Positions 3,696-39,496 of a stretch of 64,000 nucleotides of DNA are shown here, one piece after another. Within the stretch, counting starts at the first letter, position 1, and each line of letters starts with the position of its first letter. The notes beneath the pieces were generated by a model. That model searched no databases. It saw only the letters and a program-made list of their open reading frames with translations, and was not told the DNA's origin. Source of the DNA: Candidatus Latescibacterota bacterium (GTDB lineage: Bacteria; Latescibacterota; UBA2968; UBA8231); assembly GCA_965203175.1 (NCBI GenBank), contig OZ241867.1:2208001-2272000 (forward strand), given 5' to 3'. The position numbers and the translations under genes are program-made.

Positions 3696-3744
3696 GTGCC
3701 CCTCGACGGATTTTTCCGCAAATGCAAGACGAGGGAGCAAATCT

Positions 3745-23715: not shown

Positions 23716-24609
23716 ATGTCCGTTCGCTTTGCCTTCCTCACCGATACTCACCACTACCCCGACGCCCCCGCAGACTACGGCGCTCCCAAGATGCTCACCC
23801 GCAGCCAGGAGGTGCACGACGCGATTCCCCCCGCCCTCAACGCGCAGGCTTTCGACTTTGTCGTCCACGGCGGCGACTTTCTCTGCGGAGGGTCGGCCTT
23901 TGACCTGCCCACCGAGACCTATTTGCGCTCGATTGACGAGGTGGTCACGGCCTTCGCGCGGCTTGAGGCCCCTTTCTACTCGGTCCCCGGCAACCACGAC
24001 TGCGACGCTCAGAGCGGTTCCTTCGATGGTTTTGCCGCCCGTTTTCCCTATCCCGATCCGCTGACCGTCGTCGATGCTGCGCCGCGTCTGCGACTGGCAC
24101 TGGCCCATGTCTTCTACGACTGCGATGTCTTTGAGAAAGGGTCTGGCGTCTGGACCGACGCGCTAGACGAGGCTCTGCGCGCTGCTGCTGCTCAAGCCCT
24201 AGCCGATGGCTGCGCGTTGCTGCTCGTTATGCACACTTGGATTTTGCCCGATTTCGCTTGGGACCGCGGCGTGGTCGCAGGCGCGCCTCGTCTGGTCAAA
24301 ACGCTCGACGAAAGCCCTGCTATCGTCGCTGCTTTCACCGGCCATCGCCACATCAACCGCATCACTGCCTACCGCGACTACCTAGTTGTCGATACGGCCT
24401 GTCTGATCGGCTTTCCCTTGGGGTATCGCAGCGTTGAACTCTCGGACGATGGCTTTTTCAAGACGCGCTTCCACACCCTCGACCTGCCCGATCTGATGCA
24501 AGCTTCCTACGACCGCTCGACGCCCGAGGAGAACTGGGTCTGGGAAGGCCACATCTTCGACCGGGACGTGGATATCCTGTCGCCTCGGCTCAGGGCGCTG
24601 TGGGGTTGA
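23716..24609 (+). CDS. Calcineurin-like metallophosphoesterase (Icc/CpdA-like)
   Basis: TDTH, GGD, GNHD, MH, GHRH motifs. Confidence 0.88.
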   Translation: MSVRFAFLTDTHHYPDAPADYGAPKMLTRSQEVHDAIPPALNAQAFDFVVHGGDFLCGGSAFDLPTETYLRSIDEVVTAFARLEAPFYSVPGNHDCDAQSGSFDGFAARFPYPDPLTVVDAAPRLRLALAHVFYDCDVFEKGSGVWTDALDEALRAAAAQALADGCALLLVMHTWILPDFAWDRGVVAGAPRLVKTLDESPAIVAAFTGHRHINRITAYRDYLVVDTACLIGFPLGYRSVELSDDGFFKTRFHTLDLPDLMQASYDRSTPEENWVWEGHIFDRDVDILSPRLRALWG

Positions 24610-24662
24610 ACGGGGCGACTTAGCGACTGCTCCATAAAACCTTATCGCCAGAGTCTGCTCAT

Positions 24663-26879
24663 TCACTTTCGGCCACCATAGCGGTTTAAGAGCTCGGCTG
24701 TCTCAGTAGCATTGTGTTCCGTCGCAATGTACAGCGGTGTCCGGCCCTCGTCGCTCTCAGCGTTGACCTCGGCTCCTTGGGTCAGCAAGACTTCGGTCGT
24801 TTCAGCCGCGTTGTGTGCTGCCGCCCAGTGTAGCGGAGTCCGGCCATATTGGTCCTTTTCGTTGCTGTTGGCTCCCTGTGTCAGCAAGACTTTGGCCGTT
24901 TCAGCCGCGTTGTTCCACGCCGCCTGGTGCAGTGGTGTCTGGCCATATTGGTCCTTTTCGTTGCTGTTGGCTCCCTGTGTCAGCAAGACTTTGGCCGTTT
25001 CAGCCGCGTTGTTCCACGCCGCCCAGTGTAGCGGAGTCCGGCCCAATGTGTCCTTGGCACAGATCTCGGCTCCTTGCTTCAGTAAGAGTTGGGCTGTTTC
25101 CGTCGCATTTTTTGCTGCTGCCCAGTGCAGTGGTGTCGCCTCCTCGCTGTTCTTGGTGTTGACTTCGGCACCTTGGGTCAGTAACAGTTGGGCTGTCTCA
25201 GTCGCATTGTGATTCGCCGCATTGTGTAGCGGTGTCCGGCCGTTGTTGCCCTTGGCGTTTATCTCAGCTCCTTGCGCGATCAACAATTGGGCGGTTTCGA
25301 TTGCATTTTCCCACGCTGCACTGTGCAGTGGCGTATTGCCAGATTCGTCCTTTTCGTTGCTGTTGGCTCCCTGTGTCAGCAAGACTTTGGCCGTTTCAGC
25401 CGCGTTGTTCCACGCCGCCTGGTGCAGTGGTGTCTGGCCATATTGGTCCTTTTCGTTGCTGTTGGCTCCCTGTGTCAGCAAGACTTTGGCCGTTTCAGCC
25501 GCGTTGTTCCACGCCGCCCAGTGTAGCGGAGTCCGGCCCAATGTGTCCTTGGCACAGATCTCGGCTCCTTGCTTCAGTAAGAGTTGGGCTGTTTCCGTCG
25601 CATTTTTTGCTGCTGCCCAGTGCAGTGGTGTCGCCTCCTCGCTGTTCTTGGTGTTGACTTCGGCACCTTGGGTCAGTAACAGTTGGGCTGTCTCAGTCGC
25701 ATTGTGATTCGCCGCATTGTGTAGCGGTGTCCGGCCGTTGTTGCCCTTGGCGTTTATCTCAGCTCCTTGCGCGATCAACAATTGGGCGGTTTCGATTGCA
25801 TTTTCCCACGCTGCACTGTGCAGTGGCGTATTGCCAGATTCGTCCTTTTCGTTGACGTTGGCTCCCTGTGTCAGCAAGACTTTGGTCGTTTCAGCCGTAT
25901 TGTTCCACGCTGCCCAGTGTAGTGGCGTCAGGCCCAATGTGTCCTTGGCGCAAATCTCGGCTCCTTGCGTCAGCAACAGGTTGGCCGTTTTGTTTGCATT
26001 TTCTGCTGCTGCCCAGTGCAGTGGTGTCGCCTCCCTGCTGTCCTTGGTGTTGACGTCGGCCCCCCATGTTATTAACAGTTGGACCACCGTTTCAGCCGCG
26101 TTGTTTGCTGCCGCCCAGTGTAGCGGTGTCCGGCCCAATGTGTCCTTGGCGTAGATGTCGGCACCTTGGGTCAGTAAGAGCTGGGCTGTTTCGGTTGCAT
26201 TGTTCCACGCCGCAGAATGCAGCGGTGTTGCGCCCGCAGAATGCAGCGGTGTTGCGCTCTGGTCGGTTTTGGCGTTTATCTCAGCACCTTGGGTCAGTAA
26301 GAGCTGGGCTGTTTCGTTCGCATTTTTCTGCGCCGCTTGGTGCAGTGGTGTCGCGCCATATTCGTCCTTTTCGTTGATGTTGGCTCCCTGTGTCAGCAAG
26401 ACTTCGGTCGTTTCAGCCGCGTTGTTCCACGCCGCCCAGTGTAGCGGAGTCCGGCCCGATGTGTCCTTGGCACAGATCTCAGCTCCTTGCGTTAGTAACA
26501 GGTGGGCTGTTTCCGTCGCATTGTTTACTGCTGCCCAGTGCAGAGGTGTCGCCTCCTTGCTGTCCTTGGTGTTGACGTTGGCCCCCCATGTTATTAACAG
26601 TTGGACCGTTTCAGCCGCGTTTTCTGCTACCGCCCAGTGTAGCGGAGTCCGGCCCAATGTGTCCTTGGCATAGATCTCGGCTCCTTGCGTTAGTAACAGG
26701 TGGGCTGTTTCCGTCGCATTGTTTACTGCTGCCCAGTGCAGTGGTGTCGCCTCCTCGCTGTCCTTGGTGTTGACGTCTTGGATATTGGCGAACACAAGGA
26801 AGCCAATGACCAAGAGCACCACTGCGCCCAAGATCTCCAATCGCCGGGCTTTAGTCTTTTTTGGCGGTCCGTTGCTCAT
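24663..26879 (-). CDS. Membrane-anchored ankyrin repeat protein 1 (~21 repeats)
   Basis: Basic N-terminus plus TM segment, GxTPLHxAAxxN repeats, C-cap LLNRYGGRK. Confidence 0.93.
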   Translation of the reverse strand: MSNGPPKKTKARRLEILGAVVLLVIGFLVFANIQDVNTKDSEEATPLHWAAVNNATETAHLLLTQGAEIYAKDTLGRTPLHWAVAENAAETVQLLITWGANVNTKDSKEATPLHWAAVNNATETAHLLLTQGAEICAKDTSGRTPLHWAAWNNAAETTEVLLTQGANINEKDEYGATPLHQAAQKNANETAQLLLTQGAEINAKTDQSATPLHSAGATPLHSAAWNNATETAQLLLTQGADIYAKDTLGRTPLHWAAANNAAETVVQLLITWGADVNTKDSREATPLHWAAAENANKTANLLLTQGAEICAKDTLGLTPLHWAAWNNTAETTKVLLTQGANVNEKDESGNTPLHSAAWENAIETAQLLIAQGAEINAKGNNGRTPLHNAANHNATETAQLLLTQGAEVNTKNSEEATPLHWAAAKNATETAQLLLKQGAEICAKDTLGRTPLHWAAWNNAAETAKVLLTQGANSNEKDQYGQTPLHQAAWNNAAETAKVLLTQGANSNEKDESGNTPLHSAAWENAIETAQLLIAQGAEINAKGNNGRTPLHNAANHNATETAQLLLTQGAEVNTKNSEEATPLHWAAAKNATETAQLLLKQGAEICAKDTLGRTPLHWAAWNNAAETAKVLLTQGANSNEKDQYGQTPLHQAAWNNAAETAKVLLTQGANSNEKDQYGRTPLHWAAAHNAAETTEVLLTQGAEVNAESDEGRTPLYIATEHNATETAELLNRYGGRK
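24853..25854. repeat. Apparently exact 495-bp tandem duplication (5 ankyrin repeats)
   Basis: Sequence at 24853 recurs at 25348 and the protein block is duplicated verbatim. Confidence 0.8.
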
Positions 26880-26955
26880 TTCGTTTCTCGCAATCGGGTG
26901 GTAGTGTCTGGTGGTGTTGGCGGCTGCGTTGGGTTTTTGCTATTGCTCTCTTGAG

Positions 26956-27260
26956 CGCATCACTGCCTACCGCGACTATCTAGTTGTCGATACGGCCTGT
27001 CTGATCGGCTTTCCCTTGGGGTATCGCAGCGTTGAGCTTACTGACGATGGCTTTTTCAAGACGCGCTTCCACACTCTCGACCTGCCCGATCTGATGCAAG
27101 CTTCCTACGACCGCTCGACGCCCGAGGAGAATTGGGTCTGGGAAGGCCACATCTTCGACCGGGACGTGGATATCCTGTCGCCTCGGCTCAGGGCGCTGTG
27201 GGGCTGAACGGGGCGACTTAGCGACTGCTCCATAAAACCGTATCGCCAGCGTCTGCTCAT
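26956..27260 (+). pseudogene. Duplicated 3' fragment of metallophosphoesterase gene plus downstream spacer
   Basis: Near-identical to 24358..24662 (RITAYRDY...LRALWG*), with no 5' part. Confidence 0.9.
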
Positions 27261-29333
27261 TCACTCTCGGCCACCATAGCGGTTTAATAGCTGGGCTGTC
27301 TCAGTAGCATTGTGTTCCGTCGCAATGTACAGCGGTGTCCGACCCTCGTCGCTCTCAGCATTGACCTCGGCTCCCTGCTTAAGCAGCAGTTCGGCTGTCG
27401 TAGCAGCATCCGTCTCTGCCGCATCGTGCAGCGGCGTCCGGCCCTTGTCGGCTTTGGCGTTTATCTCGGCTCCTTGCGTTATCAACAATTGGGCTGTTTC
27501 GGTTGCGTTGTCCTCTGCCGCCCAGTGTAGCGGTGTCCGGCCCTTGTCGGTTTTGGCGTTTATCTCAGCTCCTTGCGTCAGTAACAGCTGGGCTGTTTCA
27601 GTCGCATTGTACCAGGCCGCCTCGTGTAGTGGCATCCATCTCTTGTTGTCCTTTTCGTTGACGTCGGCCCCTTGCGTCAGTAAGAGTTGGGCTGTTTCGG
27701 TTGCGTTGTTCCTCGCCGCCCAGTGCAGCGGTGTCTGGCCCAATGTGTCCTTGGCACAGATCTCGGCTCCTTGCGTCAGTAAGAGTTGGGCTGTCTCAGT
27801 CGCATTTTTTGCTGCTGCCCAGTGCAGTGGTGTCGCCTCCTCGCTGTTCTTGGTGTTGACTTCGGCTCCTTGGGTTAGTAAGAGTTGGGCTGTCTCAGTC
27901 GCATTGTGATTCGCCGCATTGTGTAGCGGTGTCCGGCCGTTGTCGGCTTTGGCATTTATCTCAGCTCCTTGCGCGATCAACAATTGGGCTATTTCGATTG
28001 CATTTTCGCACGCCGCATTGTGTAGCGGTGTCCGGCCGTTGTCGGCTTTGGCATTTATCTCAGCTCCTTGTGCGATCAACAATTGGGCTATTTCGATTGC
28101 ATTTTCCCACGCTGCACTGTGCAGTGGCGTATTGCCAGATTCGTCCTTTTCGTTGACGTTGGCTCCCCGTGTCAGCAAGACTTCGGTCGTTTCAGCCGCG
28201 TTGTGTACTGCCGCATTGTGTAGCGGTGTCCGGTCCTGGTCGGTTTTGGCGTTAACTTCGGCTCCTTGGGTTAGTAAGAGTTGGACTGTCTCAGTAGCAT
28301 TGTGATTCGCCGCATTGTGTAGCGGTGTCCAGCCCTGGTCGGCTTTGGCGTTTATCTCAGCTCCTTGCGCGATCAACAATTGGGCTATTTCGGTTGCATT
28401 TTTGCACACTGCATTGTGCAGTGGCGTCACGCCAGATTCGCTCTTTTCGTTGACGTTGGCTCCCTGTGTCAGCAACAGGTTGGCCATCTCAGCCGCGTTG
28501 TTCCACGCCGCCCAGTGTAGTGGCGTCAGGCCCAATGTGTCCTTGGCGCAAATCTCGGCTCCTTGCGTTAGTAAGAGTTGGGCTGTTTCAGTCGCATTTT
28601 TCCACGCGGCATAATGCAGCGGTGTTGCGCTCTGGTCATTTTTGGCGTTTATCTCAGCTCCTTGGGTCAGTAAGAGTTGGGCTGTTTCGGTTGCGTTGTT
28701 CCTCGCCGCATAGTGCAGCGGTGTCCCGTCTTTGTCGTTTTTGGCGTTTATCTCAGCTCCTTGCGTTAGCAACAATTGGGCTGTTTCAGCCGCATTGTAC
28801 CAGGCCGCAGTGTGTAGCGGCATATACCCATATTTATTCTTTTCGTTGATTTTGGCTCCCTGTGTCAGCAAGACTTTGGCCGTTTCAGCCGCGTTGTTTG
28901 CTGCCGCCCGGTGCAGTGGTGTCTCGCCATATTCATCCTTTTCGTTGATTTTGGCTCCCTGTGTCAGCAAGAGCTCGGTCGTTTCAGCCGCGTTGTTTGC
29001 TGCCGCCCAGTGTAGCGGAGTCCGGCCCAATGTGTCCTTGGCACAGATCTCGGCTTCTTGAGTTAGTAACAGTTGGGCCGTTTCAGTCGCATTTTTCCAC
29101 GCCGCCCAGTGCAGTGGTGTCGCCTCCTCGCTGGTCTTGGCGTTGACGTTAGCCCCCCATGTTAGTAACAGTTGGGCCGTTTCGGTTGCATTTTTCCTCG
29201 CCGCCCGGTGCAGTGGTGTATTGTCAGCCTTTATATTGACGAACACAAGGAAGCCAATGACCAAGAGCACCACTGCGCCCAAGACCTTGGCCAATCGCCG
29301 GACTTTAGTCTTTTTTGGCGGTCTGTTGCTCAT
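27261..29333 (-). CDS. Membrane-anchored ankyrin repeat protein 2 (~20 repeats)
   Basis: Same leader, repeat consensus and C-cap as gene 1. Confidence 0.93.
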   Translation of the reverse strand: MSNRPPKKTKVRRLAKVLGAVVLLVIGFLVFVNIKADNTPLHRAARKNATETAQLLLTWGANVNAKTSEEATPLHWAAWKNATETAQLLLTQEAEICAKDTLGRTPLHWAAANNAAETTELLLTQGAKINEKDEYGETPLHRAAANNAAETAKVLLTQGAKINEKNKYGYMPLHTAAWYNAAETAQLLLTQGAEINAKNDKDGTPLHYAARNNATETAQLLLTQGAEINAKNDQSATPLHYAAWKNATETAQLLLTQGAEICAKDTLGLTPLHWAAWNNAAEMANLLLTQGANVNEKSESGVTPLHNAVCKNATEIAQLLIAQGAEINAKADQGWTPLHNAANHNATETVQLLLTQGAEVNAKTDQDRTPLHNAAVHNAAETTEVLLTRGANVNEKDESGNTPLHSAAWENAIEIAQLLIAQGAEINAKADNGRTPLHNAACENAIEIAQLLIAQGAEINAKADNGRTPLHNAANHNATETAQLLLTQGAEVNTKNSEEATPLHWAAAKNATETAQLLLTQGAEICAKDTLGQTPLHWAARNNATETAQLLLTQGADVNEKDNKRWMPLHEAAWYNATETAQLLLTQGAEINAKTDKGRTPLHWAAEDNATETAQLLITQGAEINAKADKGRTPLHDAAETDAATTAELLLKQGAEVNAESDEGRTPLYIATEHNATETAQLLNRYGGRE

Positions 29334-29352
29334 TTCGTTTCTCGCAATTGGG

Positions 29353-29468
29353 TGGGTCTGGGAAGGTCACATCTTCGACCGGGACGTGGATATCCTGTCG
29401 CCTCGGCTCAGGGCGCTGTGGGGTTGAACGGGGCGACTTAGCGACCCTTATCGCCAGCGTCTGCTTAT
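29353..29468 (+). pseudogene. Shorter duplicated phosphoesterase 3' fragment plus spacer (12-bp deletion)
   Basis: Matches 24535..24662 (WVWEGHIFDRDVDILSPRLRALWG*). Confidence 0.88.
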
Positions 29469-32156
29469 TCACTCTCGGCCACCATAGCGGTTTAATAGCT
29501 CGGCTGTCTCAGTAGCATTGTGTTCCGTCGCAATGTACAGCGGTGTCCGACTCTCGTCGCTCTCAGCATTGACCTCGGCTCCCTGCTTAAGCAGCAGTTC
29601 GGCTGTCGCAGCAGCATCCATCTCTGCCGCCCAGTGTAGCGGTGTCTGGCCCTCGTCGGTTTTGGCATTTATCTCGGCACCTTGGGTCAGTAAGAGTTGG
29701 GCTGTTTCGGTTGCGTTGTCCTCGGCCGCCCAGTGTAGCGGTGTCTGGCCCTCGTCGGTTTTGGCGTTTATCTCGGCACCTTGGGTCAGTAAGAGTTGGG
29801 CTGTTTCGGTTGCATTTTTCCACGCCGCATAGTGCAGTGGTGTCGCCTCCTCGCTGTTCTTGGTGTTGACGTCGGCCCCTTGGGTCAGTAACAGTTGGGC
29901 TGTCTCAGTAGCATTGTGATTCGCCGCATTGTGTAGCGGTGTCCGGCCGTTGTCGGCTTTGGCGTAGATGTCGGCTCCTTGCGCGATCAACAATTGGGCT
30001 ATTTCGATTGCATTTTCGCACGCTGCATTGTGTAGTGGTGTCCGGCCGTTGTCGGTTTTGGCGTTTATTTCAGCTCCTTGCGCGATCAACAATTGGGCTG
30101 TTTCGATTGCATTTTCCCACGCTGCCCTATGCAGTGGCGTATTGCCAGATTCGTCCTTTCCGTTGACGTTGGCTCCCTGTGCCAGCAAGATCTTGGCCGT
30201 TTCAGCCGCGTTGTGTACTGCCGCACTGTGCAGCGGTGTCCGGCCGTTGTCGGTTTTGGCGTTTATTTCAGCTCCTTGCGCGATCAACAATTGGGCTGTT
30301 TCGATTGCATTTTTGCACACTGCATTGTGCAGTGGCGTATTGCCATCTTGGTCCTTTTCGTTGATGTTGGCTCCCTGTGTCAGTAAGAGTTGGGCTGTTT
30401 CCGTCGCATTGTTTGCCGCCACCCAGTGTAGCGATGTCTGGCCATATTCATTCTTTTCGTTGGTTTTGGCTCCCTGCGTTATCAACAATTGGGCTGTTTC
30501 GGTTGCATTTTTCCACGCCGCAAAATGCAGCGGAGTCGATCCCTTGTCGGCTTTGGCGTTTATCTCGGCTTCTTGGGTCAGTAAGAGTTGGGCTGTTTCG
30601 GTTGCGTTGTTCCACGCGGCAAAATGCAGCGGTGTCTCGCCATCTTGGTCCTTTTCGTTGATGTTGGCTCCCTGTGTCAGCAAGACTTTGGTCGTTTCAG
30701 CCGCGTTGTTCCACGCCGCCCAGTGTAGCGGAGTCCGGCCCAATGTGTCCTTGGCACAGATCTCGGCTCCTTGAGCTAGTAACAGTTGGGCTGTTTCCGT
30801 CGCATTTTCTTCTGCTGCCCAGTGCAGTGGTGTTGCTTCCTCGCTGTTCTTGGTGTTGACGTTGGCCCCCCATGTTAGTAACCGTTGGGCCGTTTTAGTC
30901 GCATTGTGATTCGCCGCATAGTGTAGCGGAGTCGATCCCTTGTTGTCCTTGGCGTAGATGTCGGCTCCTTGCGTTAGTAAGAGTTGGGCTGTTTCGGTTG
31001 CGTTGTTCCTCGCCGCAGAATGCAGCGGTGTCACCTCCTTGCTGTTCCTGGTGTTGACGTTGGCCCCCCATGTTATTAACAGTTGGGCTGTTTCAGCCGC
31101 GTTGTTCCCCGCCGCATAGTGTAGCGGAGTCGATCCCTTCTTGCCCTTGGCGTTTATCTCGGCTTCTTGGGTCAGTAAGAGTTGGGCTGTTTCGGTTGCG
31201 TTGTGCCACGCCGCAGAATGCAGCGGTGTCTCGCCCTCGTCGGTTTTGGCGTTTATCTCAGCGCCTTGGGTCAGTAAGAGTTGGGCTGTTTCGGTTGCGT
31301 TGTTCCCCGCCGCCCGGTGCAGTGGTGTCTCGCCATATTTATTCTTTTCGTTGATGTTGGCTCCCTGTGTCAGCAAGACCTCAGTCGTTTCAGCCGCGTT
31401 GTGTACTGCCGCCCAGTGTAGTGACGTCAGACCCAAGGTGTCTTTGGCGCAAATCTCGGCTCCTTGCGTCAGCAACAGGTTGGCCGTTTTGTTTGCATTT
31501 TCTGCTGCTGCCCAGTGCAGTGGTGTCGCCTCCTCGCTGTTCTTGGTGTTGACGTTGGCCCCCCATGTTATTAACAGTTGGGCCGTTTCAGCCGCGTTGC
31601 CTATCGCCGCCCAGTGTAGCGGTGTCGATCCCTTGTCGGCTTTGGCGTTTATCTCGGCCCCTTGGGTCAGTAAGAGTTGGGCTGTTTCGGTTGCGTTGTT
31701 CCACGCTGCAAAATGCAGCGGCGTCGATCCCTTGTCGGCTTTGGCGTTTATCTCGGCCCCTTGGGTCAGTAAGAGTTGGGCTGTTTCGGTTGCGTTGTTC
31801 CTCGCCGCCCGGTGCAACGGCGTCTCGCCATATTTATTCTTTTCGTTTATCTCAGCGCCTTGGGTCAGTAAGAGTTGGGCTGTTTCGGTTGCGTTGTTCC
31901 ACGCTGCCCAGTGTAGCGGTGTGTGGCCCTTGTCGTTTCTGGCGTTTATCTCGGCCCCTTGGGTCAGTAAGAGTTGGGCTGTTTCCGTCGCATTGTTTGC
32001 TGCTGCCCGGTGCAGTGGTGTCGCCTCCTCGCTGTTCTTGGTGTTGACGTCTTGGATATTGGCGAACACAAGGAAGCCAATGACCAAGAGCACCACTAGG
32101 CCCAAGACCTTGGCCAATCGCCGGACATTAGTCTTTTTTGGCGGTCCGTTGCTCAT
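29469..32156 (-). CDS. Membrane-anchored ankyrin repeat protein 3 (~26 repeats)
   Basis: Same leader, repeat consensus and C-cap. Confidence 0.93.
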   Translation of the reverse strand: MSNGPPKKTNVRRLAKVLGLVVLLVIGFLVFANIQDVNTKNSEEATPLHRAAANNATETAQLLLTQGAEINARNDKGHTPLHWAAWNNATETAQLLLTQGAEINEKNKYGETPLHRAARNNATETAQLLLTQGAEINAKADKGSTPLHFAAWNNATETAQLLLTQGAEINAKADKGSTPLHWAAIGNAAETAQLLITWGANVNTKNSEEATPLHWAAAENANKTANLLLTQGAEICAKDTLGLTSLHWAAVHNAAETTEVLLTQGANINEKNKYGETPLHRAAGNNATETAQLLLTQGAEINAKTDEGETPLHSAAWHNATETAQLLLTQEAEINAKGKKGSTPLHYAAGNNAAETAQLLITWGANVNTRNSKEVTPLHSAARNNATETAQLLLTQGADIYAKDNKGSTPLHYAANHNATKTAQRLLTWGANVNTKNSEEATPLHWAAEENATETAQLLLAQGAEICAKDTLGRTPLHWAAWNNAAETTKVLLTQGANINEKDQDGETPLHFAAWNNATETAQLLLTQEAEINAKADKGSTPLHFAAWKNATETAQLLITQGAKTNEKNEYGQTSLHWVAANNATETAQLLLTQGANINEKDQDGNTPLHNAVCKNAIETAQLLIAQGAEINAKTDNGRTPLHSAAVHNAAETAKILLAQGANVNGKDESGNTPLHRAAWENAIETAQLLIAQGAEINAKTDNGRTPLHNAACENAIEIAQLLIAQGADIYAKADNGRTPLHNAANHNATETAQLLLTQGADVNTKNSEEATPLHYAAWKNATETAQLLLTQGAEINAKTDEGQTPLHWAAEDNATETAQLLLTQGAEINAKTDEGQTPLHWAAEMDAAATAELLLKQGAEVNAESDESRTPLYIATEHNATETAELLNRYGGRE

Positions 32157-32175
32157 TTCGTTTCTCGCAATTGGG

Positions 32176-32303
32176 TGGGTCTAGGAAGGTCACATCTTCG
32201 ACCGCGACGTGGATATTCTGTCGCCTCGGCTCAGGGCGCTGTGGGGCTGAACGGGGCGACTTAGCGACTGCTCCATAAAACCGTATCGCCAGCGTCTGCT
32301 CAT
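32176..32303 (+). pseudogene. Duplicated phosphoesterase 3' fragment plus spacer with TGG>TAG stop
   Basis: Matches 24535..24662; same left junction as the copy at 29353. Confidence 0.88.
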
Positions 32304-34298
32304 TCACTCTCGGCCACCATAGCGGTTTAATAGCTCGGCTGTCTCAATAGCATTGTGATTCGTCGCAATGTGTAGTGGTGTTAGGCCCTCGTCGCTCTCA
32401 GCGTTGACTTCGGCTCCCTGCTTAAGCAGCAGTTCGGCTGTCGCAGCAGCGTCCGTCTCTGCCGCATCGTGCAGCGGCGTCAGCCCCTTGTCGTCTTTGG
32501 CGTTTATCTCGGCACCTTGGGTCAGTAAGAGTTGGGCTGTTTCGGTTGCGTTGCCCATCGCCGCTAAGTGTAGCGATGTCCGGCTACATTTGTCCTTTTC
32601 GTGAACATCGGCTCCTTGGGTCAGTAAGAGTTGGGCTGTTTCCGTCGCATTTTTCCACGCCGCAGAATGCAGCGGTGTCTGGCCTTCGTCGGCTTTGGCG
32701 TTTATCTCAGCTCCTTGCGCGATCAACAATTGGGCTGTTTCGATTGCATTTTCGCACACTGCATTGTGCAGTGGTGTCTGGCCATATTCGTCCTTTTCGC
32801 TGACGTTGGCTCCTTGGGTTAGTAAGAGTTGGGCTGTTTCAGCCGCGTTGTTCCACGCCGCAGAATGCAGTGGTGTCTGGCCATACTTATTCTTTTCGTT
32901 GCTGTTGGCTCCCTGTGTCAGCAAGACTTTGGCCGTTTCAGCCGCGTTGTTTGCTGCCGCCCGGTGCAGTGGCGTCTCGCCATATTCATCCTTTTCGTTG
33001 CTGTTGGCTCCCTGTGTCAGCAAGACTTTGGCCGTTTCAGCCGTATTTTTCCACGCCGCCCAGTGTAGCGGAGTCCGGCCCAATGTGTCCTTGGCGCAAA
33101 TCTCGGCTTCTTGAGTTAGTAACAGTTGGGCTGTTTCAGTCGCATTTTTCCACGCCGCCCAGTGCAGTGGTGTCGCCTCCTCGCTGTTCTTGGTGTTGAC
33201 GTCGGCTCCTTGGGTTAGTAACAGTTGGGCTGTTTCAGCCGCGTTGTTCCACGCCGCATGGTGCAGCGGTGTCTCGCCCTTATCGGCTTTGGCGTTTATC
33301 TCAGCTCCTTGTGCGATCAACAATTGGGCTGTTTCGTCGGCATTGTTCCATGCCGCATAGTGCAGCGGCATGTCGCCATCTTGCTCCTTTTCGTTGACGT
33401 TGGCTCCCCGTGTCAGCAAGACTTTGGTCGTTTCAGCCGCGTTGTTCCACGCCGCCCAGTGTAGCGGTGTCTGGCCCAATGTGTCCTTGGCACAGATCTC
33501 GGCACCTTGCGTCAGCAACAGGTTGGCCGTTTTGTTTGCATTGTTTGCTGCTGCCCAGTGCAGTGGTGTCGCCTCCTCGCTGGTCTTGGTGTTGACGTTG
33601 GCCCCCCATGTTATTAACAGTTGGGCCGTTTCAGCCGCGTTGTGTGCTGCCGCATCGTGTAGCGGAGTCGATCCCTGGTCGTTTTTGGCGTTTATCTCGG
33701 CCCCTTGGGTCAGTAAGAGTTGGGCTATTTCGGTTGCATTTTTCCACGCCGCATAATGCAGCGGTGTTGCGCTGTGGTCGTTTTTGGCGTTTATCTCGGC
33801 CCCTTGGGTCAGTAAGAGTTGGGCTGTTTCGGTTGCGTTGTTCCTCGCCGCCCAGTGTAGCGGTGTCCGGCCATATTCGTCCTTTTCGTTGATGTTGGCT
33901 CCCTGTGTCAGCAAGGCTTTGGCCGTTTCAGCCGCGTTGTTCCACGCTGCCCGGTGCAGTGGTGTCTGGCCTTCTTGGTCCTTTTCGTTGATGTTGGCTC
34001 CCTGTGTCAGCAACAGGTTGGCCATCTCAGCCGCGTTGTTCCACGCCGCCCAGTGTAGCGGTGTCCGGCCCAATGTGTCCTTGGCACAGATCTCGGCTCC
34101 TTGCGTCAGTAAGAGTTGGGCTGTTTCGGTTGCGTTGTTTGCTGCTGCCCAGTGCAGAGGTGTCGCCTCCTCGCTGTTCTTGGTGTTGACGTCTTGGATA
34201 TTGGCGAACACAAGGAAGCCAATGACCAAGAGCACCACTGCGCCCAAGATCTTGGCCAATCGCCGGACTTTGGTCTTTTTAGGCGGTTCGTTGCTCAT
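32304..34298 (-). CDS. Membrane-anchored ankyrin repeat protein 4 (~19 repeats)
   Basis: Same leader, repeat consensus and C-cap. Its upstream ~77 bp matches that of gene 1 (26880..26956). Confidence 0.93.
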   Translation of the reverse strand: MSNEPPKKTKVRRLAKILGAVVLLVIGFLVFANIQDVNTKNSEEATPLHWAAANNATETAQLLLTQGAEICAKDTLGRTPLHWAAWNNAAEMANLLLTQGANINEKDQEGQTPLHRAAWNNAAETAKALLTQGANINEKDEYGRTPLHWAARNNATETAQLLLTQGAEINAKNDHSATPLHYAAWKNATEIAQLLLTQGAEINAKNDQGSTPLHDAAAHNAAETAQLLITWGANVNTKTSEEATPLHWAAANNANKTANLLLTQGAEICAKDTLGQTPLHWAAWNNAAETTKVLLTRGANVNEKEQDGDMPLHYAAWNNADETAQLLIAQGAEINAKADKGETPLHHAAWNNAAETAQLLLTQGADVNTKNSEEATPLHWAAWKNATETAQLLLTQEAEICAKDTLGRTPLHWAAWKNTAETAKVLLTQGANSNEKDEYGETPLHRAAANNAAETAKVLLTQGANSNEKNKYGQTPLHSAAWNNAAETAQLLLTQGANVSEKDEYGQTPLHNAVCENAIETAQLLIAQGAEINAKADEGQTPLHSAAWKNATETAQLLLTQGADVHEKDKCSRTSLHLAAMGNATETAQLLLTQGAEINAKDDKGLTPLHDAAETDAAATAELLLKQGAEVNAESDEGLTPLHIATNHNAIETAELLNRYGGRE

Positions 34299-34520
34299 TT
34301 CGGTTCTCGCAATTGGGTGGTAGTGTCTAGTGGTGTTGGCGGCTGCGTTGGGTTTTTGTTATTGCTCTCTTGAGCCGACATTTGCTTTGCGCGATGGCTC
34401 CCTGATGTCTAAAACATAATGTAGCTTAGTATAGATGTCGGTTGAAGCTCATGGCAAGCGTCGGTGCCGCGTTGCGGAGACTGTAACTTAAAATCACATC
34501 TTTCTCGGAGGAGTAATCCC

Positions 34521-35327
34521 ATGAGCCGCGATCTTCCCCGTACCATTTTAGGCCGCACCAATCTCGAGGTTACCCGATTCGGCATTGGCGGCACGTATTG
34601 CGAGACGGTCGATGGATACAAGGCTGCGCTCGATTGTGGCGTCAACTACGTCGATACGGCACGCAGCTATCAGGGCGGTGAAGACGAGAAGTTGATCGGC
34701 CAAGCGATCCAGGGCCGGCGTCACGATCTCATCGTAGCCAGCAAATCCGCGCGGCGCGGTGCCGAAGAGGCGCGCCAAGAGTTGCAAACCTCGTTGCGCG
34801 CGCTCAAAACGGACTACCTCGATATTTTCCAGCTCCACCATTTGAACACCGAAGAAGAACGCAACCAAGCGCTGGGCCCCGGCGGAGCATTAGAAGCCGC
34901 CCAACAAGCCCGCGAAGAGGGCCTAGTGCGCTTTATCGGCGTCACCGGACACGATTGGGTGCAAGTGGAACAGGCGGTCCGCACCGGTCATTTTGATACG
35001 GTACTTTGCTGGTATAATTGCGCGATGAAAGAGCCGGAAGAAACGGTTTTTCCCGCAGCGCAGGCCGCCAATACGGGCGTGGTGATCATGAACGCCTCGC
35101 GCAACGAGCGGTTGCTAAAAGGTCCCGGCGCGCCCGCTCCTGAACAATTCTATCGCTACGTGCTCAGCCACGACGCCGTGCATACCACGGTCATGGGTTT
35201 GCGGAGTATCGATCTCTTTGCACGAGTTGCCGCTAGTTTGTCGGAGCGCGAGATGATCACGCCAGAAGAGCGGGCTGAGCTCGAAGCCTATGGAGCACAG
35301 CAGCGGGCGTCTGGGGAGCTGGAATAA
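34521..35327 (+). CDS. Aldo/keto reductase
   Basis: LGRTNLEVT, VDTARSY, SLRALKTDYLDIFQLH, VRFIGVTGH. GGAGG SD. Confidence 0.9.
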   Translation: MSRDLPRTILGRTNLEVTRFGIGGTYCETVDGYKAALDCGVNYVDTARSYQGGEDEKLIGQAIQGRRHDLIVASKSARRGAEEARQELQTSLRALKTDYLDIFQLHHLNTEEERNQALGPGGALEAAQQAREEGLVRFIGVTGHDWVQVEQAVRTGHFDTVLCWYNCAMKEPEETVFPAAQAANTGVVIMNASRNERLLKGPGAPAPEQFYRYVLSHDAVHTTVMGLRSIDLFARVAASLSEREMITPEERAELEAYGAQQRASGELE

Positions 35328-36128: not shown

Positions 36129-36365
36129 GAGGCGATTTCCCAGGCTGGCAGGAACCACATCCCCAGCTATCGGCGGGATTGGGCGAAAACTTGGAGCTAG
36201 TGGACGAGTTGGAATATATCGGTTGAGGCCCAAGGCGAAACAAGCTGCGGTACTTGCGGCGCAGATGCGCCTGTGAGTTTTATTGATAGCAGGTATTTTA
36301 CCTAAAAGATTTACCAGACCCGCGATGCAGGTCAACAATCCGCTTCTACAAGAGGGATGCTGAAG

Positions 36366-38078
36366 ATGGCTAAACGGGAATTGCAGGGACAGGCTCCTTC
36401 GCCCGATGAGCGCTTTGAGCAACGGGTCGCGCATCTGCTTCAGCCTGAAGACATGAAGACCGAGCACTACCAATACGGGATCGAAGCCGTGGACGGGAAT
36501 CAGGCTTGGGCGCTCTTTTGCGCCAGCGGCGCTGGTGATCTGGCGCAGGTCAGCGCGTTGCTCGACCGCGATCCCAAGTTGGTCAATGCCCAGTACTGGT
36601 ACCAGTTTCCCATCCACATGGCGGTGCGCGAGGGCCATGCTGAGGTGGTCCAGCTACTGTTGCAGGCTGGGGCCGATCCGGGCCAGTCGCGTTATACTTA
36701 TAATTCGTGGGACAAGTTGCTAGCCATCGCCGAGGAGCGCGGCTACGGAGAAGTGCAGGCGCTGCTGGTGGCAGCGATGCGCGGGCGATTTGGCTACGAT
36801 CCGGGTTTTGTCGCGCTAGCCGAGGCGATCAAAGGCCGCGACCGGGCGCTGGTCGAGGCGGTGTTGGCCGAGCATCCCGACTTTATTCGCGCCGCCGATG
36901 CGTTGGGCAATGGGCCGCTGCACTGGGCGGCGCTGACGCGGCAAAACGACTTGGTGGATTTCTTTGTCGCGCAGGGTGCCGACCTCGAAGCTCGCCGCGC
37001 CGATGGCCAGACACCGCTATTGGTCTCGCTCAACGGCGACTACTGGTTTCGGACGCGCGATCTGCCGGCGGAAGCGCCGCGAGATCCGTGGGTTGTTACC
37101 CGCCACTTGCTCGCTTGCAGCGCGGAGTACGCTCTCAGCATTGCCTGTGCGGCTGGCGATGAAGATCGCGTCAATGAAGTGCTGGTGGCCGATCCGGCTC
37201 AGGCCCGTACTCTCGATGCCGGACGGCGCAGTCCGCTGTCCTATGCCGCTCGCAACGGCCATACCCGGATCGTCGAAAAATTGCTGGATTTGGGTGCCGA
37301 TCCCAATCAGCCCGAAGAAAACGCGTCGCGCGGCAAAGCACTCTTCGAGGCTTGCGCGGGTAACCATTTGGAGACAGTGAAACTGTTGCGCGAACGCGGT
37401 GCCGATCCCAATGCCGGGGTGGACTCTTCGGGCTCTTGCCTGACTATCGTCGAGTTCAATCACAGCAAGAAAGGCCAACAAATGCAGGCTCTGTTACGCG
37501 AATACGGTGCTGTGACGCCGCCTTATGCCATGGACGACGCGGCGCTGGAACGGGCGATGCGCGAGGGAGATGCTGTCATTTCGCACTCACAATTCCTGCA
37601 CGAGTTGATGGGACGGGATAATCCCGCGCTCATTGGCGTCTTCTTGGAAATCACACCGGATGTGGGCGACCTGTTCCAATTGACCGATATCTGGGGCGGC
37701 AACTATCCTTCAGACCCCGATACAATCCGCACCTTGGCCGACCGCGGCCTCGACCTGCACCGCGCCAACTGGATCGGCCGCACCTTTCTGCACGGCTGTG
37801 CGGAAAAGGGCGATGTTGCGGCGGCTCGCGTCTTTTTGGAGTTGGGAGCCGATATAGAGGCGGTCGAATTGGAATACGGAGGCACGCCTTTGGCCGCTGC
37901 GGCGCGCAAGGGGCAGGCGGAGATGGTGCGTTTTTTATTAGAACAAGGTGCCGATCCAGCCGCGCCAGCCGAGTCGCCTTGGGCGCAGCCGCTTTATTGG
38001 GCGGAGAAGGAAGGGCAGGGGGAAGTGGCGGAGTTGCTTAAGGAAAGGCTCAGAGGGAAAGGCGCTAGCGGCGATTAG
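36366..38078 (+). CDS. Cytoplasmic ankyrin repeat protein (divergent repeats)
   Basis: PIHMAVREGH, GPLHWAA, SPLSYAARNGH, TPLAAAARKG; no signal peptide. Confidence 0.88.
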   Translation: MAKRELQGQAPSPDERFEQRVAHLLQPEDMKTEHYQYGIEAVDGNQAWALFCASGAGDLAQVSALLDRDPKLVNAQYWYQFPIHMAVREGHAEVVQLLLQAGADPGQSRYTYNSWDKLLAIAEERGYGEVQALLVAAMRGRFGYDPGFVALAEAIKGRDRALVEAVLAEHPDFIRAADALGNGPLHWAALTRQNDLVDFFVAQGADLEARRADGQTPLLVSLNGDYWFRTRDLPAEAPRDPWVVTRHLLACSAEYALSIACAAGDEDRVNEVLVADPAQARTLDAGRRSPLSYAARNGHTRIVEKLLDLGADPNQPEENASRGKALFEACAGNHLETVKLLRERGADPNAGVDSSGSCLTIVEFNHSKKGQQMQALLREYGAVTPPYAMDDAALERAMREGDAVISHSQFLHELMGRDNPALIGVFLEITPDVGDLFQLTDIWGGNYPSDPDTIRTLADRGLDLHRANWIGRTFLHGCAEKGDVAAARVFLELGADIEAVELEYGGTPLAAAARKGQAEMVRFLLEQGADPAAPAESPWAQPLYWAEKEGQGEVAELLKERLRGKGASGD

Positions 38079-38113: not shown

Positions 38114-39496
38114 ATGGAAGAGCAAATTGGTGTAGTTATCGAGCAGGGGCCGGCGGATTGGCAGGTTGTGCAGCAGGACGAGCGCGGGAAGGGGAGGATT
38201 GAGTTGGGGGGGAGGTGGAAGTTCGAGACGCCCGGACAAGTGGAGGTGCGCTTGGTGTGGGAGGATACGGGGGTGGCTGTTGCGGCCGGTTTGGACTGGC
38301 AGGCTGTGCCGACAGAGGAAGATGGGACTTGGAAGGGTGCTTTGGAACACATACCGGCGGGAGGGCTCTATCGGCTGGAGACGCGGTTGCGGACGGCGGA
38401 GAATCCGGCTGGGGAGTGGTCGCCGAGGGGAGATATGCGGCACTTTTTGGGCATAGGCGATTTGTGGGTGATTGCCGGGCAGAGCAATTCGGCTGGATAC
38501 GGGCGCGGGCCGTACGAGGACCCAGCGGAACTGGGAGTGCATCTATTTAGGAATAGCGAGCAATGGGCGCTGGCGGCGCATCCGATGAACGAATCGACGG
38601 ATACCCAGCACGCAGTGAACCGAGAGGCCGCCAATCCAGGGCACTCGCCCTACCTGCAATTTGGGTGCACGCTCAAAAGGACGCTCTCGCACCCGGTGGG
38701 TTTGGTGCAGACGGCGTTGGGAGGCTCTCCGCTTACTCGGTGGAATCCCGGCGAGCCGGGGGCGGCGGATTTGTTTGACAATATGGTGCAGTGCGTGGAG
38801 AAGGTAGGGGGGAAGGTTCGGGGGATTGTGTGGTATCAGGGGGAAAGCGATACGGGGACCGACGCGGACGCGACCAGTTATGCGGAGCGGTTCCAGCAAG
38901 CAGTCGCCGCTTGGCGGGAGGCCCTTGCGGACGTGGAGTTGCCGGTGCTCACCGTGCAGCTAAACCGCGTGTACCAACCCGCAGACCCGGATGCCGATCG
39001 GCGCTGGAGCCAAGTGCGTGAGGCGCAGCGACAGGTGGCGCGGCAAACGCCGGGCATAGGCGTGGTGCCAGCGCTCGACTTGCCGCTTGCGGATCAGATC
39101 CACACCAGTCCCGCTGGCAATATGCTCTTGGGCGAGCGATTGGCGCAGGCGGCTTTGGGGTTGGTTTATGGACAAGCAGTAGCTTGGCAGGCACCGGATT
39201 TGGTAGCGGCTCGGCGGCGGGAGGACCGTGTCGAGCTAGAGTTTGCAGCCGTCGAGAGCCGGATGGACAGCATTGACCTAGAAGCCAACAGCTTCCGGGT
39301 CGAGGATGCGGCCGGCGAGGTTCCGGTCGCGGCAGTGAGCTATCCCAAGGACCATCGCGTCGAGTTGATTTTGGAGCGGCCCTTGCAAGGGGTGGCTAGG
39401 GTCCACGGCGGCTACGGCAAGGATCCGGCCACCGTGCCAGCGGACATGGAGCGCTTTTTGCCGATGTTGGGCTTCTGGGGCGTGGAGATCGTCTGA
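38114..39496 (+). CDS. Sialate O-acetylesterase (SASA/CE6-like) domain protein
   Basis: IAGQSNSAG, WYQGESD, DQIH motifs. Confidence 0.85.
   Translation: MEEQIGVVIEQGPADWQVVQQDERGKGRIELGGRWKFETPGQVEVRLVWEDTGVAVAAGLDWQAVPTEEDGTWKGALEHIPAGGLYRLETRLRTAENPAGEWSPRGDMRHFLGIGDLWVIAGQSNSAGYGRGPYEDPAELGVHLFRNSEQWALAAHPMNESTDTQHAVNREAANPGHSPYLQFGCTLKRTLSHPVGLVQTALGGSPLTRWNPGEPGAADLFDNMVQCVEKVGGKVRGIVWYQGESDTGTDADATSYAERFQQAVAAWREALADVELPVLTVQLNRVYQPADPDADRRWSQVREAQRQVARQTPGIGVVPALDLPLADQIHTSPAGNMLLGERLAQAALGLVYGQAVAWQAPDLVAARRREDRVELEFAAVESRMDSIDLEANSFRVEDAAGEVPVAAVSYPKDHRVELILERPLQGVARVHGGYGKDPATVPADMERFLPMLGFWGVEIV

Follow-up and report, generated by a model that had tools for sequence, protein, structure and literature searches.

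A tandem array of four long ankyrin-repeat genes with conserved ends and rearranged repeat units in a Latescibacterota genome

Within a 64,000-nucleotide stretch of a Latescibacterota genome (hereafter the window), four intact ankyrin-repeat (ANK) genes lie in tandem on the minus strand, all of them sharing a leader, basic and hydrophobic in character, and a cap repeat at the end. The array is probably a lineage-specific, tandemly amplified family of long ankyrin-repeat solenoid proteins that, to judge from their leaders, would be exported. Its evolution is a slow birth-and-death process with shuffling of repeat units, as in the ANK genes of Wolbachia, and not the output of a programmed diversity generator. 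A metallophosphoesterase (MPE) gene (23716..24609, plus strand), convergent to the array, adjoins the first ANK gene (A) and serves as a synteny anchor; an aldo-keto reductase (AKR) gene (34464..35327, plus strand) adjoins the last (D).

All four genes are built from 99-nt units. Gene A (24663..26879, 738 aa) has 21 units and an 8-aa partial duplicate, gene B (27261..29333, 690 aa) has 20 units, gene C (29469..32156, 895 aa) has 26 and gene D (32304..34298, 664 aa) has 19. An initial annotation of this DNA had recognized four co-oriented genes of about 21, 20, 26 and 19 repeats, and counts of TPLH-like anchors (22, 20, 26 and 19) bear this out, gene A having 21 units despite its 22 anchors because one anchor stems from the 8-aa internal duplication. 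The leader, the cap and the three module motifs quoted by that annotation are likewise all present. Of 83 anchor-to-anchor intervals, 81 measure exactly 33 aa, and Tandem Repeats Finder returns a period of 99 with 19.8, 18.3, 24.0 and 17.1 copies in genes A to D at 66–70% matches. Membership in the ankyrin family, judged with the Pfam models PF00023 (Ank) and PF12796 (Ank_2), is clear for all four proteins, which score above the curated thresholds (Ank, 467–634 bits with a cut-off of 21.1; Ank_2, 475–785 bits with a cut-off of 27.3), with Ank E-values of 2.7e-161, 5.1e-154, 1.7e-199 and 3.8e-146 for A to D. Unit positions L12, H13, L27 and A32 are invariant across 80 units, and a Lys is conserved at DARPin position 33 in 76 of these 80. 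The best relative of solved structure is a 24-repeat ankyrin-1/2 domain (4rlv, E 3.1e-111); next come NOMPC and DARPin constructs, the latter appearing among the solved-structure sequence matches from E 1.1e-91. An AF2 model, of low to moderate confidence (mean pLDDT only 64), shows an N-terminal helix (residues 11–37) and then 19 helix pairs. Whole-protein and leader searches of a 5.8-billion-cluster protein set retrieved no close relative of the array proteins.

Each gene has its own peculiarities. Gene A is without the conserved penultimate 'C' unit, and its cap ends in GGRK, as in the gene at related locus L011. It also contains an internal duplication (24852..25897, minus strand) whose overlapping 551-nt copies, 25347-25897 and 24852-25402, are 99.5% identical (3 mismatches) and yield a 5-unit (495-nt) tandem repeat; within the array, this segment is the only one at risk of mis-assembly. 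Gene B has a variant leader junction, such that its first repeat begins within the leader, and it matches the L006b gene collinearly over its 3' half. Gene C combines D-like 5' blocks with B-like 3' blocks, and 11 of its 26 units are without a match of at least 90% anywhere in the unit set. Gene D has a cap variant in common with L006a and a unit order partly collinear with that of L014a.

The spacers between the genes hold copied pieces of the MPE gene, which shows that the array arose by tandem duplication. The source is a 305-nt segment downstream of the array (24358..24662) that comprises the last 252 nt of the MPE gene and a 53-nt spacer. A long copy of this segment lies in the A–B spacer (26956..27260, 305 nt, 96.7% identity), where it forms a first type of junction; directly upstream of gene A it is met by a 77-nt copy (26880..26956, 94.8%) of the region upstream of D (34299..34375). 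The B–C spacer holds a short copy of 24535-24627 (29353..29445, 93 nt, 98.9%), fused approximately 19 nt ahead of the gene B ATG in a second type of junction, and the C–D spacer holds a short copy of 24535-24662 (32176..32303, 128 nt, 94.5%) joined in the same way. Two different junctions are thus visible, and the one that occurs twice is consistent with a later homologous unequal crossover; its start (24535) is present in locus L003 as well. The outer limits originally assigned to the array, 24358 and 34376, match the boundaries of the duplicated flanks 24358-24662 and 34299-34375. A sigma-70-like match (10/12) is found upstream of D at 34428-34457 on the minus strand, beyond the part that was copied to A. 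We envisage that illegitimate recombination duplicated a segment consisting of one gene, the 3' end of its convergent neighbor and a little upstream sequence, and that in-register recombination at the 99-nt units, within and between paralogues, would have added, removed and relocated blocks of two to seven units.

Comparison with the same site in related genomes shows that both gene number and unit order vary between species. The nearest relatives are MAGs labelled Candidatus Latescibacterota or Gemmatimonadetes, whose titles mention no habitat. Of the 23 closest loci, 11 contain ANK genes of this leader-and-cap design, as against none of the remaining 56. Related MAGs carry zero, one or two such genes of 12–20 units where the window has four, which gives a between-species range of 0–4 genes and 12–26 units. 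At the empty sites (L005, L010, L015 and L017), the AKR gene directly follows the MPE gene at a distance of 4–107 nt. Leader, first units and last two units are conserved, and the interior is rearranged: the 271 units compared fall into 71 types, 37 of them recurrent (types A and B are each present in 13 of 19 gene pieces), and the genes of related species draw on the same module vocabulary in other orders. Individual paralogues have recognizable counterparts elsewhere, B in L006b and L003b and D in L006a and L014a; several paralogue lineages predate the species splits.

The variation among units is concentrated on one face of the fold. Entropy reaches 2.25–3.09 bits at unit positions 5, 6, 7, 9, 14, 17 and 18, which are canonical ankyrin binding-surface positions. 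We take these to be DARPin repeat positions 1, 2, 3, 5, 10, 13 and 14, a set that presumably covers five of the six positions randomized in DARPin libraries. Amino-acid identity is 0.20 at the surface positions as compared to 0.75 in the framework, and 82 units display 69 distinct surface signatures, so that variability is concentrated on the groove over a near-constant framework, as in a DARPin-like binder. Counting by parsimony along a FastTree of 246 unique units gives a dN/dS of 1.35 at surface positions versus 0.27 in the framework; columns 7, 9 and 18 give nominal values of 2.43, 2.15 and 3.20 (p 0.019, 0.0037 and 0.0046). A separate within-cluster ratio, from pairs that are non-independent, is 2.32. 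Positive selection passes Bonferroni correction (33 tests) at 0 of 33 columns. By comparison, significantly negative values survive correction at 23 of the 33 columns, all of them among the 26 framework columns, and the framework is thus under clear purifying selection. The initial annotation had envisaged a variable family of binders; the variation does sit where a binding surface would be expected, but diversifying selection on these positions is only nominal.

Such a pattern raises the possibility of neutral repeat instability, in which recombination-prone DNA encodes a tolerant solenoid, the surface varies because it is unconstrained, and gene number drifts. A surface dN/dS near 1 without a column passing correction accords with this idea, as do the related species with no gene or one gene at the site, the L011 gene broken into two ORFs and the rarity of sub-unit chimeras (all four combinations in only 12 of 4356 quartets of half-unit types). 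We nonetheless consider this explanation rather unlikely. The framework is under purifying selection, the four long ORFs are intact, the leader and cap are conserved across species and module types persist across them, indicating that the proteins are therefore maintained; the three surface columns with nominal dN/dS of 2.2–3.2 also run against it. For the maintained family that we favor, the fixed scaffold would present highly variable β-hairpin and first-helix residues as a concave groove for protein binding. Its likeliest targets are proteins of a eukaryotic host or other extracellular proteins, in line with the role proposed for the ankyrin 'eukaryotic-like proteins' (ELPs) of sponge symbionts.

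A more ambitious interpretation of the same surface is that the locus constitutes a natural combinatorial binder library, in which about 40 trans-specific modules are continually re-dealt in register within and between the exported paralogues, and selection on the groove favors new specificities towards variable surface or immune proteins of a host such as a sponge. We hold this to be doubtful. If true, the array would be a bacterial counterpart of the fungal repeat-shuffling recognition receptors, acting on the symbiont's side.

How the units came to be distributed among the genes bears on whether shuffling is programmed. Clustering at an identity of at least 93% yields 14 multi-member clusters, of which ten span two or more genes, and most of the 35 shared segments are non-collinear; for example, B units 2–5 correspond to D units 11–14 (93.4% identity), and B units 11–15 to C units 19–23 (93.2%). 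The initial annotation had described near-identical modules recurring in different orders, as opposed to units that group by gene or keep an invariant order. Since clusters cross genes and order differs between related species at one site, its account of mosaicism therefore holds. 'Near-identical' applies to the 14 clusters but not to the units at large, whose mean pairwise identity is 0.689 (3655 pairs; 0.637 at the amino-acid level) and which reach 100% only within gene A, in its internal duplication. That duplication is the only event that looks recent. The remaining exchanges are old, a judgment based on the fact that shared blocks differ by 5–11%, equal to the divergence of 5–12% (88–95% identity) between the flanks of different species. 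Nor is there within-genome homogenization or concerted evolution of units: of the 87 window units, 38 have their nearest relative in another genome and 37 have it inside the window, with ties for the other 12. Crossover or conversion between modules, the proposed source of diversity, thus finds backing in the non-collinear blocks, but ongoing gene conversion is unsupported, as the units are not homogenized.

These observations make it improbable that the four genes form a cassette repertoire whose frequent recombination in a population alters a displayed binder or antigen. Such a scheme, which may be likened to contingency loci or cassette-based antigenic variation, could draw on four co-oriented paralogues with long in-register 99-nt homology, the very recent 5-unit duplication in A and a copy number that moves from 0 to 4 between species. 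However, apart from the gene A duplication, the blocks have diverged as much as species flanks, several paralogue lineages and the L003 junction are older than the species splits, and units are not homogenized within the genome. Programmed variation systems, moreover, have an associated recombinase or reverse transcriptase, or silent donor cassettes. Every array gene is full length with its own start and leader, leaving no silent cassette among the four, and a Pfam scan of 50 window ORFs, the larger ones, matched no recombinase, integrase, transposase, invertase or reverse transcriptase, in agreement with the initial annotation, which had seen no recombinase in the window. Prophage genes were also absent from the 50 scanned ORFs.

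The leaders offer an indication of where the proteins may act. That of D (34191..34298, minus strand) consists of an n-region and a hydrophobic core and overlaps the helix at residues 11–37 of the AF2 model; its equivalents on the same strand are 26775-26879 in A, 29247-29333 in B and 32049-32156 in C. Across the array the n-region is 15–16 aa long with a net charge of +4 to +7, the core is 16 aa (mean Kyte-Doolittle approximately 3.1), and the first repeat starts 4–5 residues past the core. This type of leader is kept in all 15 genes for which a leader was found (16–18-residue core, mean hydropathy 2.3–3.3). An h-region of 16–18 residues is intermediate between typical cleaved signals and membrane anchors, and a small residue at position -1 is absent from the gene B leader; by a hydrophobicity heuristic, charge and hydropathy are compatible with either a signal or a signal-anchor. 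We infer export from this leader alone, and the 'displayed' of the initial annotation is accordingly weakened to what the heuristic supports. Export of fast-folding designed ankyrin proteins has been reported to require SRP-type or more hydrophobic leaders (PMC9594773). The basic stretch and very hydrophobic core would direct the protein co-translationally to the Sec translocon, its N terminus staying inside. This would leave the 19–26-repeat solenoid beyond the cytoplasmic membrane, where it would either remain tethered via the uncleaved leader or be freed by cleavage between VFA and N.

A protein so placed might serve the bacterium's own periplasm or membrane, for instance by scaffolding or protecting envelope enzymes, without being directed at a host. 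Pseudomonas offers a precedent in a small periplasmic ankyrin protein that is anchored in the membrane and linked to catalase. An N-in leader would put the domain at the periplasmic face, the array neighbors are ordinary metabolic genes in the Pfam scan of window ORFs, and no secretion system for crossing the outer membrane was seen among the 50 ORFs scanned. One would not, however, expect a housekeeping scaffold to vary between 0 and 4 genes and between 12 and 26 repeats among sister species or to have a hypervariable groove, and ankyrin enrichment in bacteria has been reported to track host association (PMC3932732, PMC7081726), so that an envelope function seems to us quite unlikely. Mis-assembly inflating one or two genes to four can be set aside: ankyrin repeats are hard to assemble, and short-read relatives (L001, L004, L006 and L007) yield only 6-unit genes or contig ends inside genes, with an N gap in L002, but the four genes differ substantially (for most units, identity to the nearest relative is at most 95%, and 25 of 87 are without a match of at least 90%), the spacers have two distinct junction types with substitutions of their own, and orthologues of the paralogues and the short junction recur in independent assemblies, including records titled chromosomes.

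The amplified family that we favor is a lineage-specific expansion of a host-interaction protein class already known from animal symbionts. Ankyrin proteins are reported to be enriched in sponge-associated MAGs and in PAUC34f/Latescibacterota, and to be able to block phagocytosis (PMC8163846, PMC7081726, PMC12993501, PMC13747020), an effect assayed via a surrogate bacterium with amoeba or sponge cells (PMC13747020); sponge-associated Latescibacterota with ANK proteins have been described (PMC12993501, PMC8163846). The ELPs or ARPs of sponge and animal symbionts are likewise bacterial ankyrin proteins from host-associated lineages, PAUC34f/Latescibacterota and Poribacteria among them; according to published accounts, which count domains per genome, some carry signal peptides or transmembrane helices, and individual ELPs expressed heterologously allow bacteria to escape phagocytosis (PMC8163846, PMC7081726, PMC3909097, PMC13747020, PMC12993501). 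Host binding by the array proteins is suggested by this literature. Compared to symbiont ELPs, the array proteins are unusually long (19–26 repeats) and consensus-like, and no description of a tandem ankyrin array with shared leader, cap and shuffled modules was found in the literature searched.

A close evolutionary parallel is the rapidly evolving ANK family of Wolbachia. Its repeat number is reported to differ between close strains, and its genes keep their 5' and 3' ends while recombination, both homologous and illegitimate, duplicates, deletes and shuffles the repeats in between (Siozios et al., 2013, PMC3563639). The array has the same pattern of conserved ends and rearranged interior. 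Wolbachia ANK genes, however, are dispersed or prophage-borne, mostly shorter and thought to be delivered into the host cytoplasm, whereas the array consists of four chromosomal paralogues side by side, each with a Sec-type leader, and its genome is of a free-standing, Gram-negative type. The ANK, TPR and WD repeats of high internal conservation in fungal NLRs are described as showing repeat-number polymorphism, exchange of repeats both inside and among paralogues, and sites on the concave ankyrin surface that are hypervariable or under positive selection, and are proposed to diversify recognition (Dyrka et al., 2014, PMC4986451; Podospora hnwd, PMC2873952). The array shares repeat-number polymorphism and exchange between paralogues, in its case between species only, but its internal identity of 0.637 lies below the threshold of at least 85% given for the fungal repeats (PMC4986451), concerted evolution within the genome is absent and positive selection is only nominal; it is also bacterial, without a NOD or effector domain, and its product is predicted to be exported. 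As for the 'DARPin-like' of the initial annotation, a specialized C-terminal capping repeat in all four proteins and the variable groove fit the term, but it is an analogy: the array proteins are natural and putatively exported, have no N-terminal capping repeat, keep a conserved Lys at DARPin position 33 and contain 19–26 repeats in place of 4–6. Any consensus-like ankyrin family would resemble DARPins to this degree.

The evolutionary mode seen here is thus nothing new in principle, since the ANK genes of Wolbachia and the repeats of fungal NLRs are known to evolve in this way. Ankyrin ELPs are leading candidates for the means by which extracellular symbionts escape ingestion by their filter-feeding hosts, and they are usually only counted per genome. 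The locus offers a tractable case: a single syntenic site, vacant in some sister species, at which others have one, two or four genes, with datable junctions and a module vocabulary common across species. It is also a source of very long natural ankyrin scaffolds that are consensus-like and have a leader apparently competent for export, and it can be used to ask whether repeat shuffling makes new host specificities.

The four tandem ankyrin (ANK) genes, A (24663-26879, 738 aa, 21 units), B (27261-29333, 690 aa, 20 units), C (29469-32156, 895 aa, 26 units) and D (32304-34298, 664 aa, 19 units), are intact open reading frames on the minus strand, and their products are overwhelmingly ankyrin (Pfam Ank E-values 3.8e-146 to 1.7e-199). 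Each protein opens with a leader, an N-terminal basic and hydrophobic stretch, which passes directly into repeats, and closes with a characteristic cap repeat; a conserved penultimate unit is common to B, C and D but lacking in A. Tandem Repeats Finder recovers a 99-nt period through each gene (66-70% matches), with higher-order periods of 198-495 nt, and TPLH-like anchors are spaced by exactly 33 residues in 81 of 83 intervals; both exceptions lie in A, and correspond to an 8-residue (24-nt) duplication and one extra codon. On the lower-coordinate side, the convergent upstream neighbor of the array encodes a calcineurin-like metallophosphoesterase (MPE; 23716-24609), and on the other side lies an aldo-keto reductase gene (AKR; 34464-35327). 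Two near-identical 94-aa minus-strand ORFs (24382-24666 and 26980-27264) start at the stop codons of A and B and run antisense to the MPE 3′ end and to the copy of it; neither matches a Pfam family, and they are probably spurious. It is possible that D, C, B and A form one transcript; a sigma-70-like match upstream of D only (34428-34457) is well placed but a mere lead, the promoter scan not being above chance (2 sites versus 3.2 expected from shuffled sequence), and 26 terminator-like sites were found versus 24.3 expected from shuffled sequence.

The 86 units of A-D have a mean pairwise DNA identity of 0.689 (3655 pairs). Clustering at 93% identity or more yields 14 multi-member clusters, 10 of which hold units from two or more genes, and at 88% or more the same is true of 11 of 12. 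The initial annotation had arrived at the same unit counts, which the anchor spacing bears out, and had described the gene interiors as different orders of recurring, near-identical modules, which the cross-gene clusters at the stricter threshold bear out in part. Written as strings of module types, A reads ALAB..LABCDABECDABE.F, B reads.HBE.MNBCDOCPDA..QIF, C reads AMGJKA.GJK..ABG..COCPDHQIF and D reads ABEGNKAB..HBE.CJ.IF. Because gapped extension dilutes identity over the repeats, BLASTN between the four genes is nearly uninformative; an ungapped diagonal segment scan, used in its place, yielded 35 shared segments (123-733 nt long, 89-99.5% identical), most of which are shifted in position from one gene to another. 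Units 2-5 of B correspond to units 11-14 of D (93.4%), units 11-15 of B to units 19-23 of C (93.2%) and units 17-20 of A to units 1-4 of D (93.9%); in C, the 5′ part contains D-like blocks and the 3′ part B-like ones. The sole recent event is a duplication of 551 nt within A whose copies differ at 3 positions. Separate clustering of 5′ and 3′ half-units revealed all four combinations in only 12 of 4356 quartets, indicating that exchange has been mainly of whole units or blocks.

The spacers of the array hold copies of the MPE 3′ end. A 305-nt segment (24358-24662) is repeated at 26956-27260 with 96.7% identity, and this copy adjoins a 77-nt stretch (26880-26956) that duplicates, at 94.8% identity, the region upstream of D (34299-34375). 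A shorter piece, starting at 24535, is repeated at 32176-32303 (94.5%) and 29353-29445 (98.9%), both copies being fused about 19 nt ahead of the next ATG. The presence of long and short copies indicates two different illegitimate junctions, and the occurrence of the short junction twice fits a later homologous unequal crossover. The limits that the initial annotation had set for the array, 24358 and 34376, are the outer ends of the duplicated segments.

Searching species-representative genomes with the MPE protein turned up 79 loci (L numbers below, with a or b for an individual ANK gene). The 23 closest, from MAGs titled Candidatus Latescibacterota or, in a few cases, Gemmatimonadetes or Gemmatimonadota, show 86-98% MPE protein identity and flanks at 88-95% DNA identity, the latter indicating that they are different species. 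ANK genes with the array leader and cap occur at 11 of these 23 loci and at none of the remaining 56; MPE-AKR synteny is kept in 15 of the 23. The site is empty, with MPE and AKR 4-107 nt apart, in L005, L010, L015 and L017; it holds one ANK gene in L012 (14 units), L013 (17), L014 (20) and L019 (17), and two in L003 (12-13 and 18 units) and L006 (17 units and at least 9, the latter truncated by the contig end). The short junction of the window, with its start at 24535, is also found in L003, so this duplication is older than their split. The single ANK gene of L011 (11118-13208, minus strand) is broken into a leader-bearing ORF of 328 aa and a cap-bearing ORF of 339 aa, and upstream of it lies an independent copy of the MPE 3′ end (13411-13727, equivalent to window 24292-24607) whose size and junction differ from those in the window. 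Four relatives carry between MPE and AKR a gene pair, named from reading translations and absent from the window, for a 2Fe-2S protein and a ~710-aa molybdopterin-oxidoreductase-like protein (L006 8515-11093, L008 10975-13631, L011 13827-16408, L061 11000-13578). This pair replaces or accompanies the ANK genes, and the site thus varies in more than ankyrin genes.

Short-read assemblies contain 6-unit genes, and contig ends or an N gap within ANK genes; these short-read ANK genes are probably collapsed repeats. That the window's array as a whole is an assembly artefact is unlikely, given that its copies and junctions are distinct and have independent counterparts in other assemblies; the one part that may be artefactual is the 99.5%-identical duplication in A. 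A search of a 5.8-billion-cluster protein set with the whole D protein gave 7898 hits, generic ankyrin with no family member among them (the best about 50% identical over part of the length), and a leader-only search of the same set (residues 1-42) gave 11 word-sharing candidates, none at E <= 0.001. The array ANK family is known here from genome contigs alone.

At the threshold used for the window, the 271 units from the ANK genes of all species fall into 71 types, 37 of them recurrent. Each of the two most frequent internal types is present in 13 of 19 gene pieces; for the cap and penultimate types the figure is 16 of 19. Unit order varies between species except at the ends, where the leader and first two units, and the final two units, keep their places; a collinear run, about seven units long, is seen only between L003a and L012a. 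Paralog lineages can be traced between species: B matches L006b in its 3′ half and L003b at its head, D has its counterpart in L006a (cap variant) and partly in L014a, and A shares its GGRK ending with L011a. For 38 of the 87 window units the nearest relative is in another genome, for 37 it is in the window and for 12 the two are tied, and the best matches of the two kinds have mean identities of 0.915 and 0.914, respectively. In-window matches are thus no closer than those to other genomes, indicating that there is no concerted homogenization within the genome. The set of module types predates these species.

Across 80 regular units, L12, H13, L27 and A32 are invariant, and entropy is highest at unit positions 7, 9, 14, 6, 17, 18 and 5, falling from 3.09 to 2.25 bits in that order. 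Units have an amino-acid identity of 0.20 at these seven positions versus 0.75 elsewhere, and 82 core units display 69 different seven-residue signatures. The seven positions make up the β-hairpin and first-helix face with which ankyrin domains bind; they include five of the six positions randomized in DARPins. Within clusters, Nei-Gojobori pN/pS is 2.32 at variable positions versus 0.25 in the framework, from pairs that are non-independent, and parsimony counting on a tree built from the 246 unique units of all species puts dN/dS at 1.35 for the surface versus 0.27 for the framework. In the counting test on these 246 units, 23 of 33 columns are significantly negative, all of them framework, and columns 7, 9 and 18 nominally exceed 1 (p 0.019, 0.0037 and 0.0046, respectively), with no column above 1 surviving correction for 33 tests. 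The low framework ratio and the 23 negative columns indicate that the ankyrin scaffold is clearly maintained. The groove is unconstrained at the least, and diversifying selection may act on it.

All 15 genes with a recognizable leader, in the window and its relatives, share one layout: an n-region of 15-16 residues with a net charge of +4 to +7, a core of 16-18 uncharged residues (12 in L001a) with a mean hydropathy of 2.3-3.3, mostly about 3.1, and a first repeat that starts 4-5 residues after the core. Under the positive-inside rule, the basic n-region predicts that the repeat domain should lie outside the cytoplasmic membrane. Lipoprotein export is ruled out by the lack of Cys in the leader, and Tat export, considered as the leaders contain RR, appears unlikely, the remainder of the motif being absent. 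A, C and D carry VFA↓N, a possible signal-peptidase site, but in B position -1 is Val. The proteins would be either membrane-anchored or released. A single-sequence AF2 model of D (mean pLDDT only 64, pTM 0.46), which served for secondary structure alone, contains a helix at residues 11-37 and 19 helix pairs. In one study, fast-folding designed ankyrin proteins are exported efficiently only via SRP-type or more hydrophobic leaders, an export need that the unusually hydrophobic core of the array leader would fit (PMC9594773).

A fifth ankyrin-repeat gene in the window (36357-38078, plus strand, 573 aa, Ank_2 E 2e-42) has no hydrophobic leader and has irregular, diverged repeats; kept at about 93% protein identity in L002, L005, L008 and L014, it apparently encodes a cytoplasmic member of a different, stable family outside the array. 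A TPP riboswitch (3556-3652, plus strand; 69.8 bits versus a gathering score of 54.3) lies directly upstream of a TonB-dependent receptor gene (3694-6096), itself followed by a thiamin pyrophosphokinase gene (6086-6769, plus strand), which suggests riboswitch-controlled thiamin uptake and salvage. A 425-aa protein (53809-55086, plus strand) matches the ANKH family (progressive ankylosis, pyrophosphate or citrate exporter; E 2.8e-50), best known from animals. The window also encodes a sialate O-acetylesterase (SASA; 38114-39496), a sulfatase (60240-61682), a PhyH dioxygenase (11771-12613) and a DUF4953 Met-zincin (15253-18021), classes discussed for sponge symbionts as aids to life on host glycans. 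Adjacent paralog pairs comprise two family-5 solute-binding proteins (48498-50285 and 50345-52129, minus strand) and two LacI-type regulators (1336-2379 and 2608-3492, plus strand), the second of which has no LacI DNA-binding domain match.

The array ANK genes belong to an already known class of ankyrin proteins; the nearest solved structures by sequence are the 24-repeat ankyrin-1/2 domain, NOMPC and DARPin constructs. As described in earlier reports, ankyrin 'eukaryotic-like proteins' (ELPs) are enriched in sponge-associated MAGs and PAUC34f/Latescibacterota, some of them have signal peptides or transmembrane helices, and single ELPs can let a surrogate bacterium escape phagocytosis (PMC8163846, PMC7081726, PMC12993501, PMC3909097, PMC13747020). 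The ANK genes of Wolbachia have conserved ends and internal repeats that are duplicated, deleted and shuffled by homologous and illegitimate recombination, the same evolutionary mode as that of the array (PMC3563639). The ANK repeats of fungal NLRs are polymorphic in number and positively selected on the concave face; they also have at least 85% internal identity and evolve in concert, neither of which is found in the array (PMC4986451). Open-access papers and bioRxiv yielded no description of a tandem module-shuffled ankyrin array in sponge-type symbionts.

We conclude that the array represents birth-and-death evolution of a tandem family of putatively exported ankyrin solenoids, in which in-register recombination adds, removes and relocates unit blocks over the time in which the species diverged. 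A programmed or high-frequency generator of diversity is rejected, since block divergence of 5-11% matches species divergence, all ANK copies in the array are full genes, and none of the 50 Pfam-scanned window ORFs is a recombinase, transposase or reverse transcriptase, in agreement with the initial annotation, which had seen no recombinase in the window. The same annotation had proposed that unequal crossover or gene conversion between modules may diversify the locus into a displayed, variable family of binders. The proposal is upheld in part: mosaicism, copy-number change and surface variability are evident at the locus, whereas active conversion, display and a repertoire of binders go beyond what the data show. 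The locus is well suited to clean comparative work on whether shuffled repeats give symbiont ankyrin proteins new host specificities.
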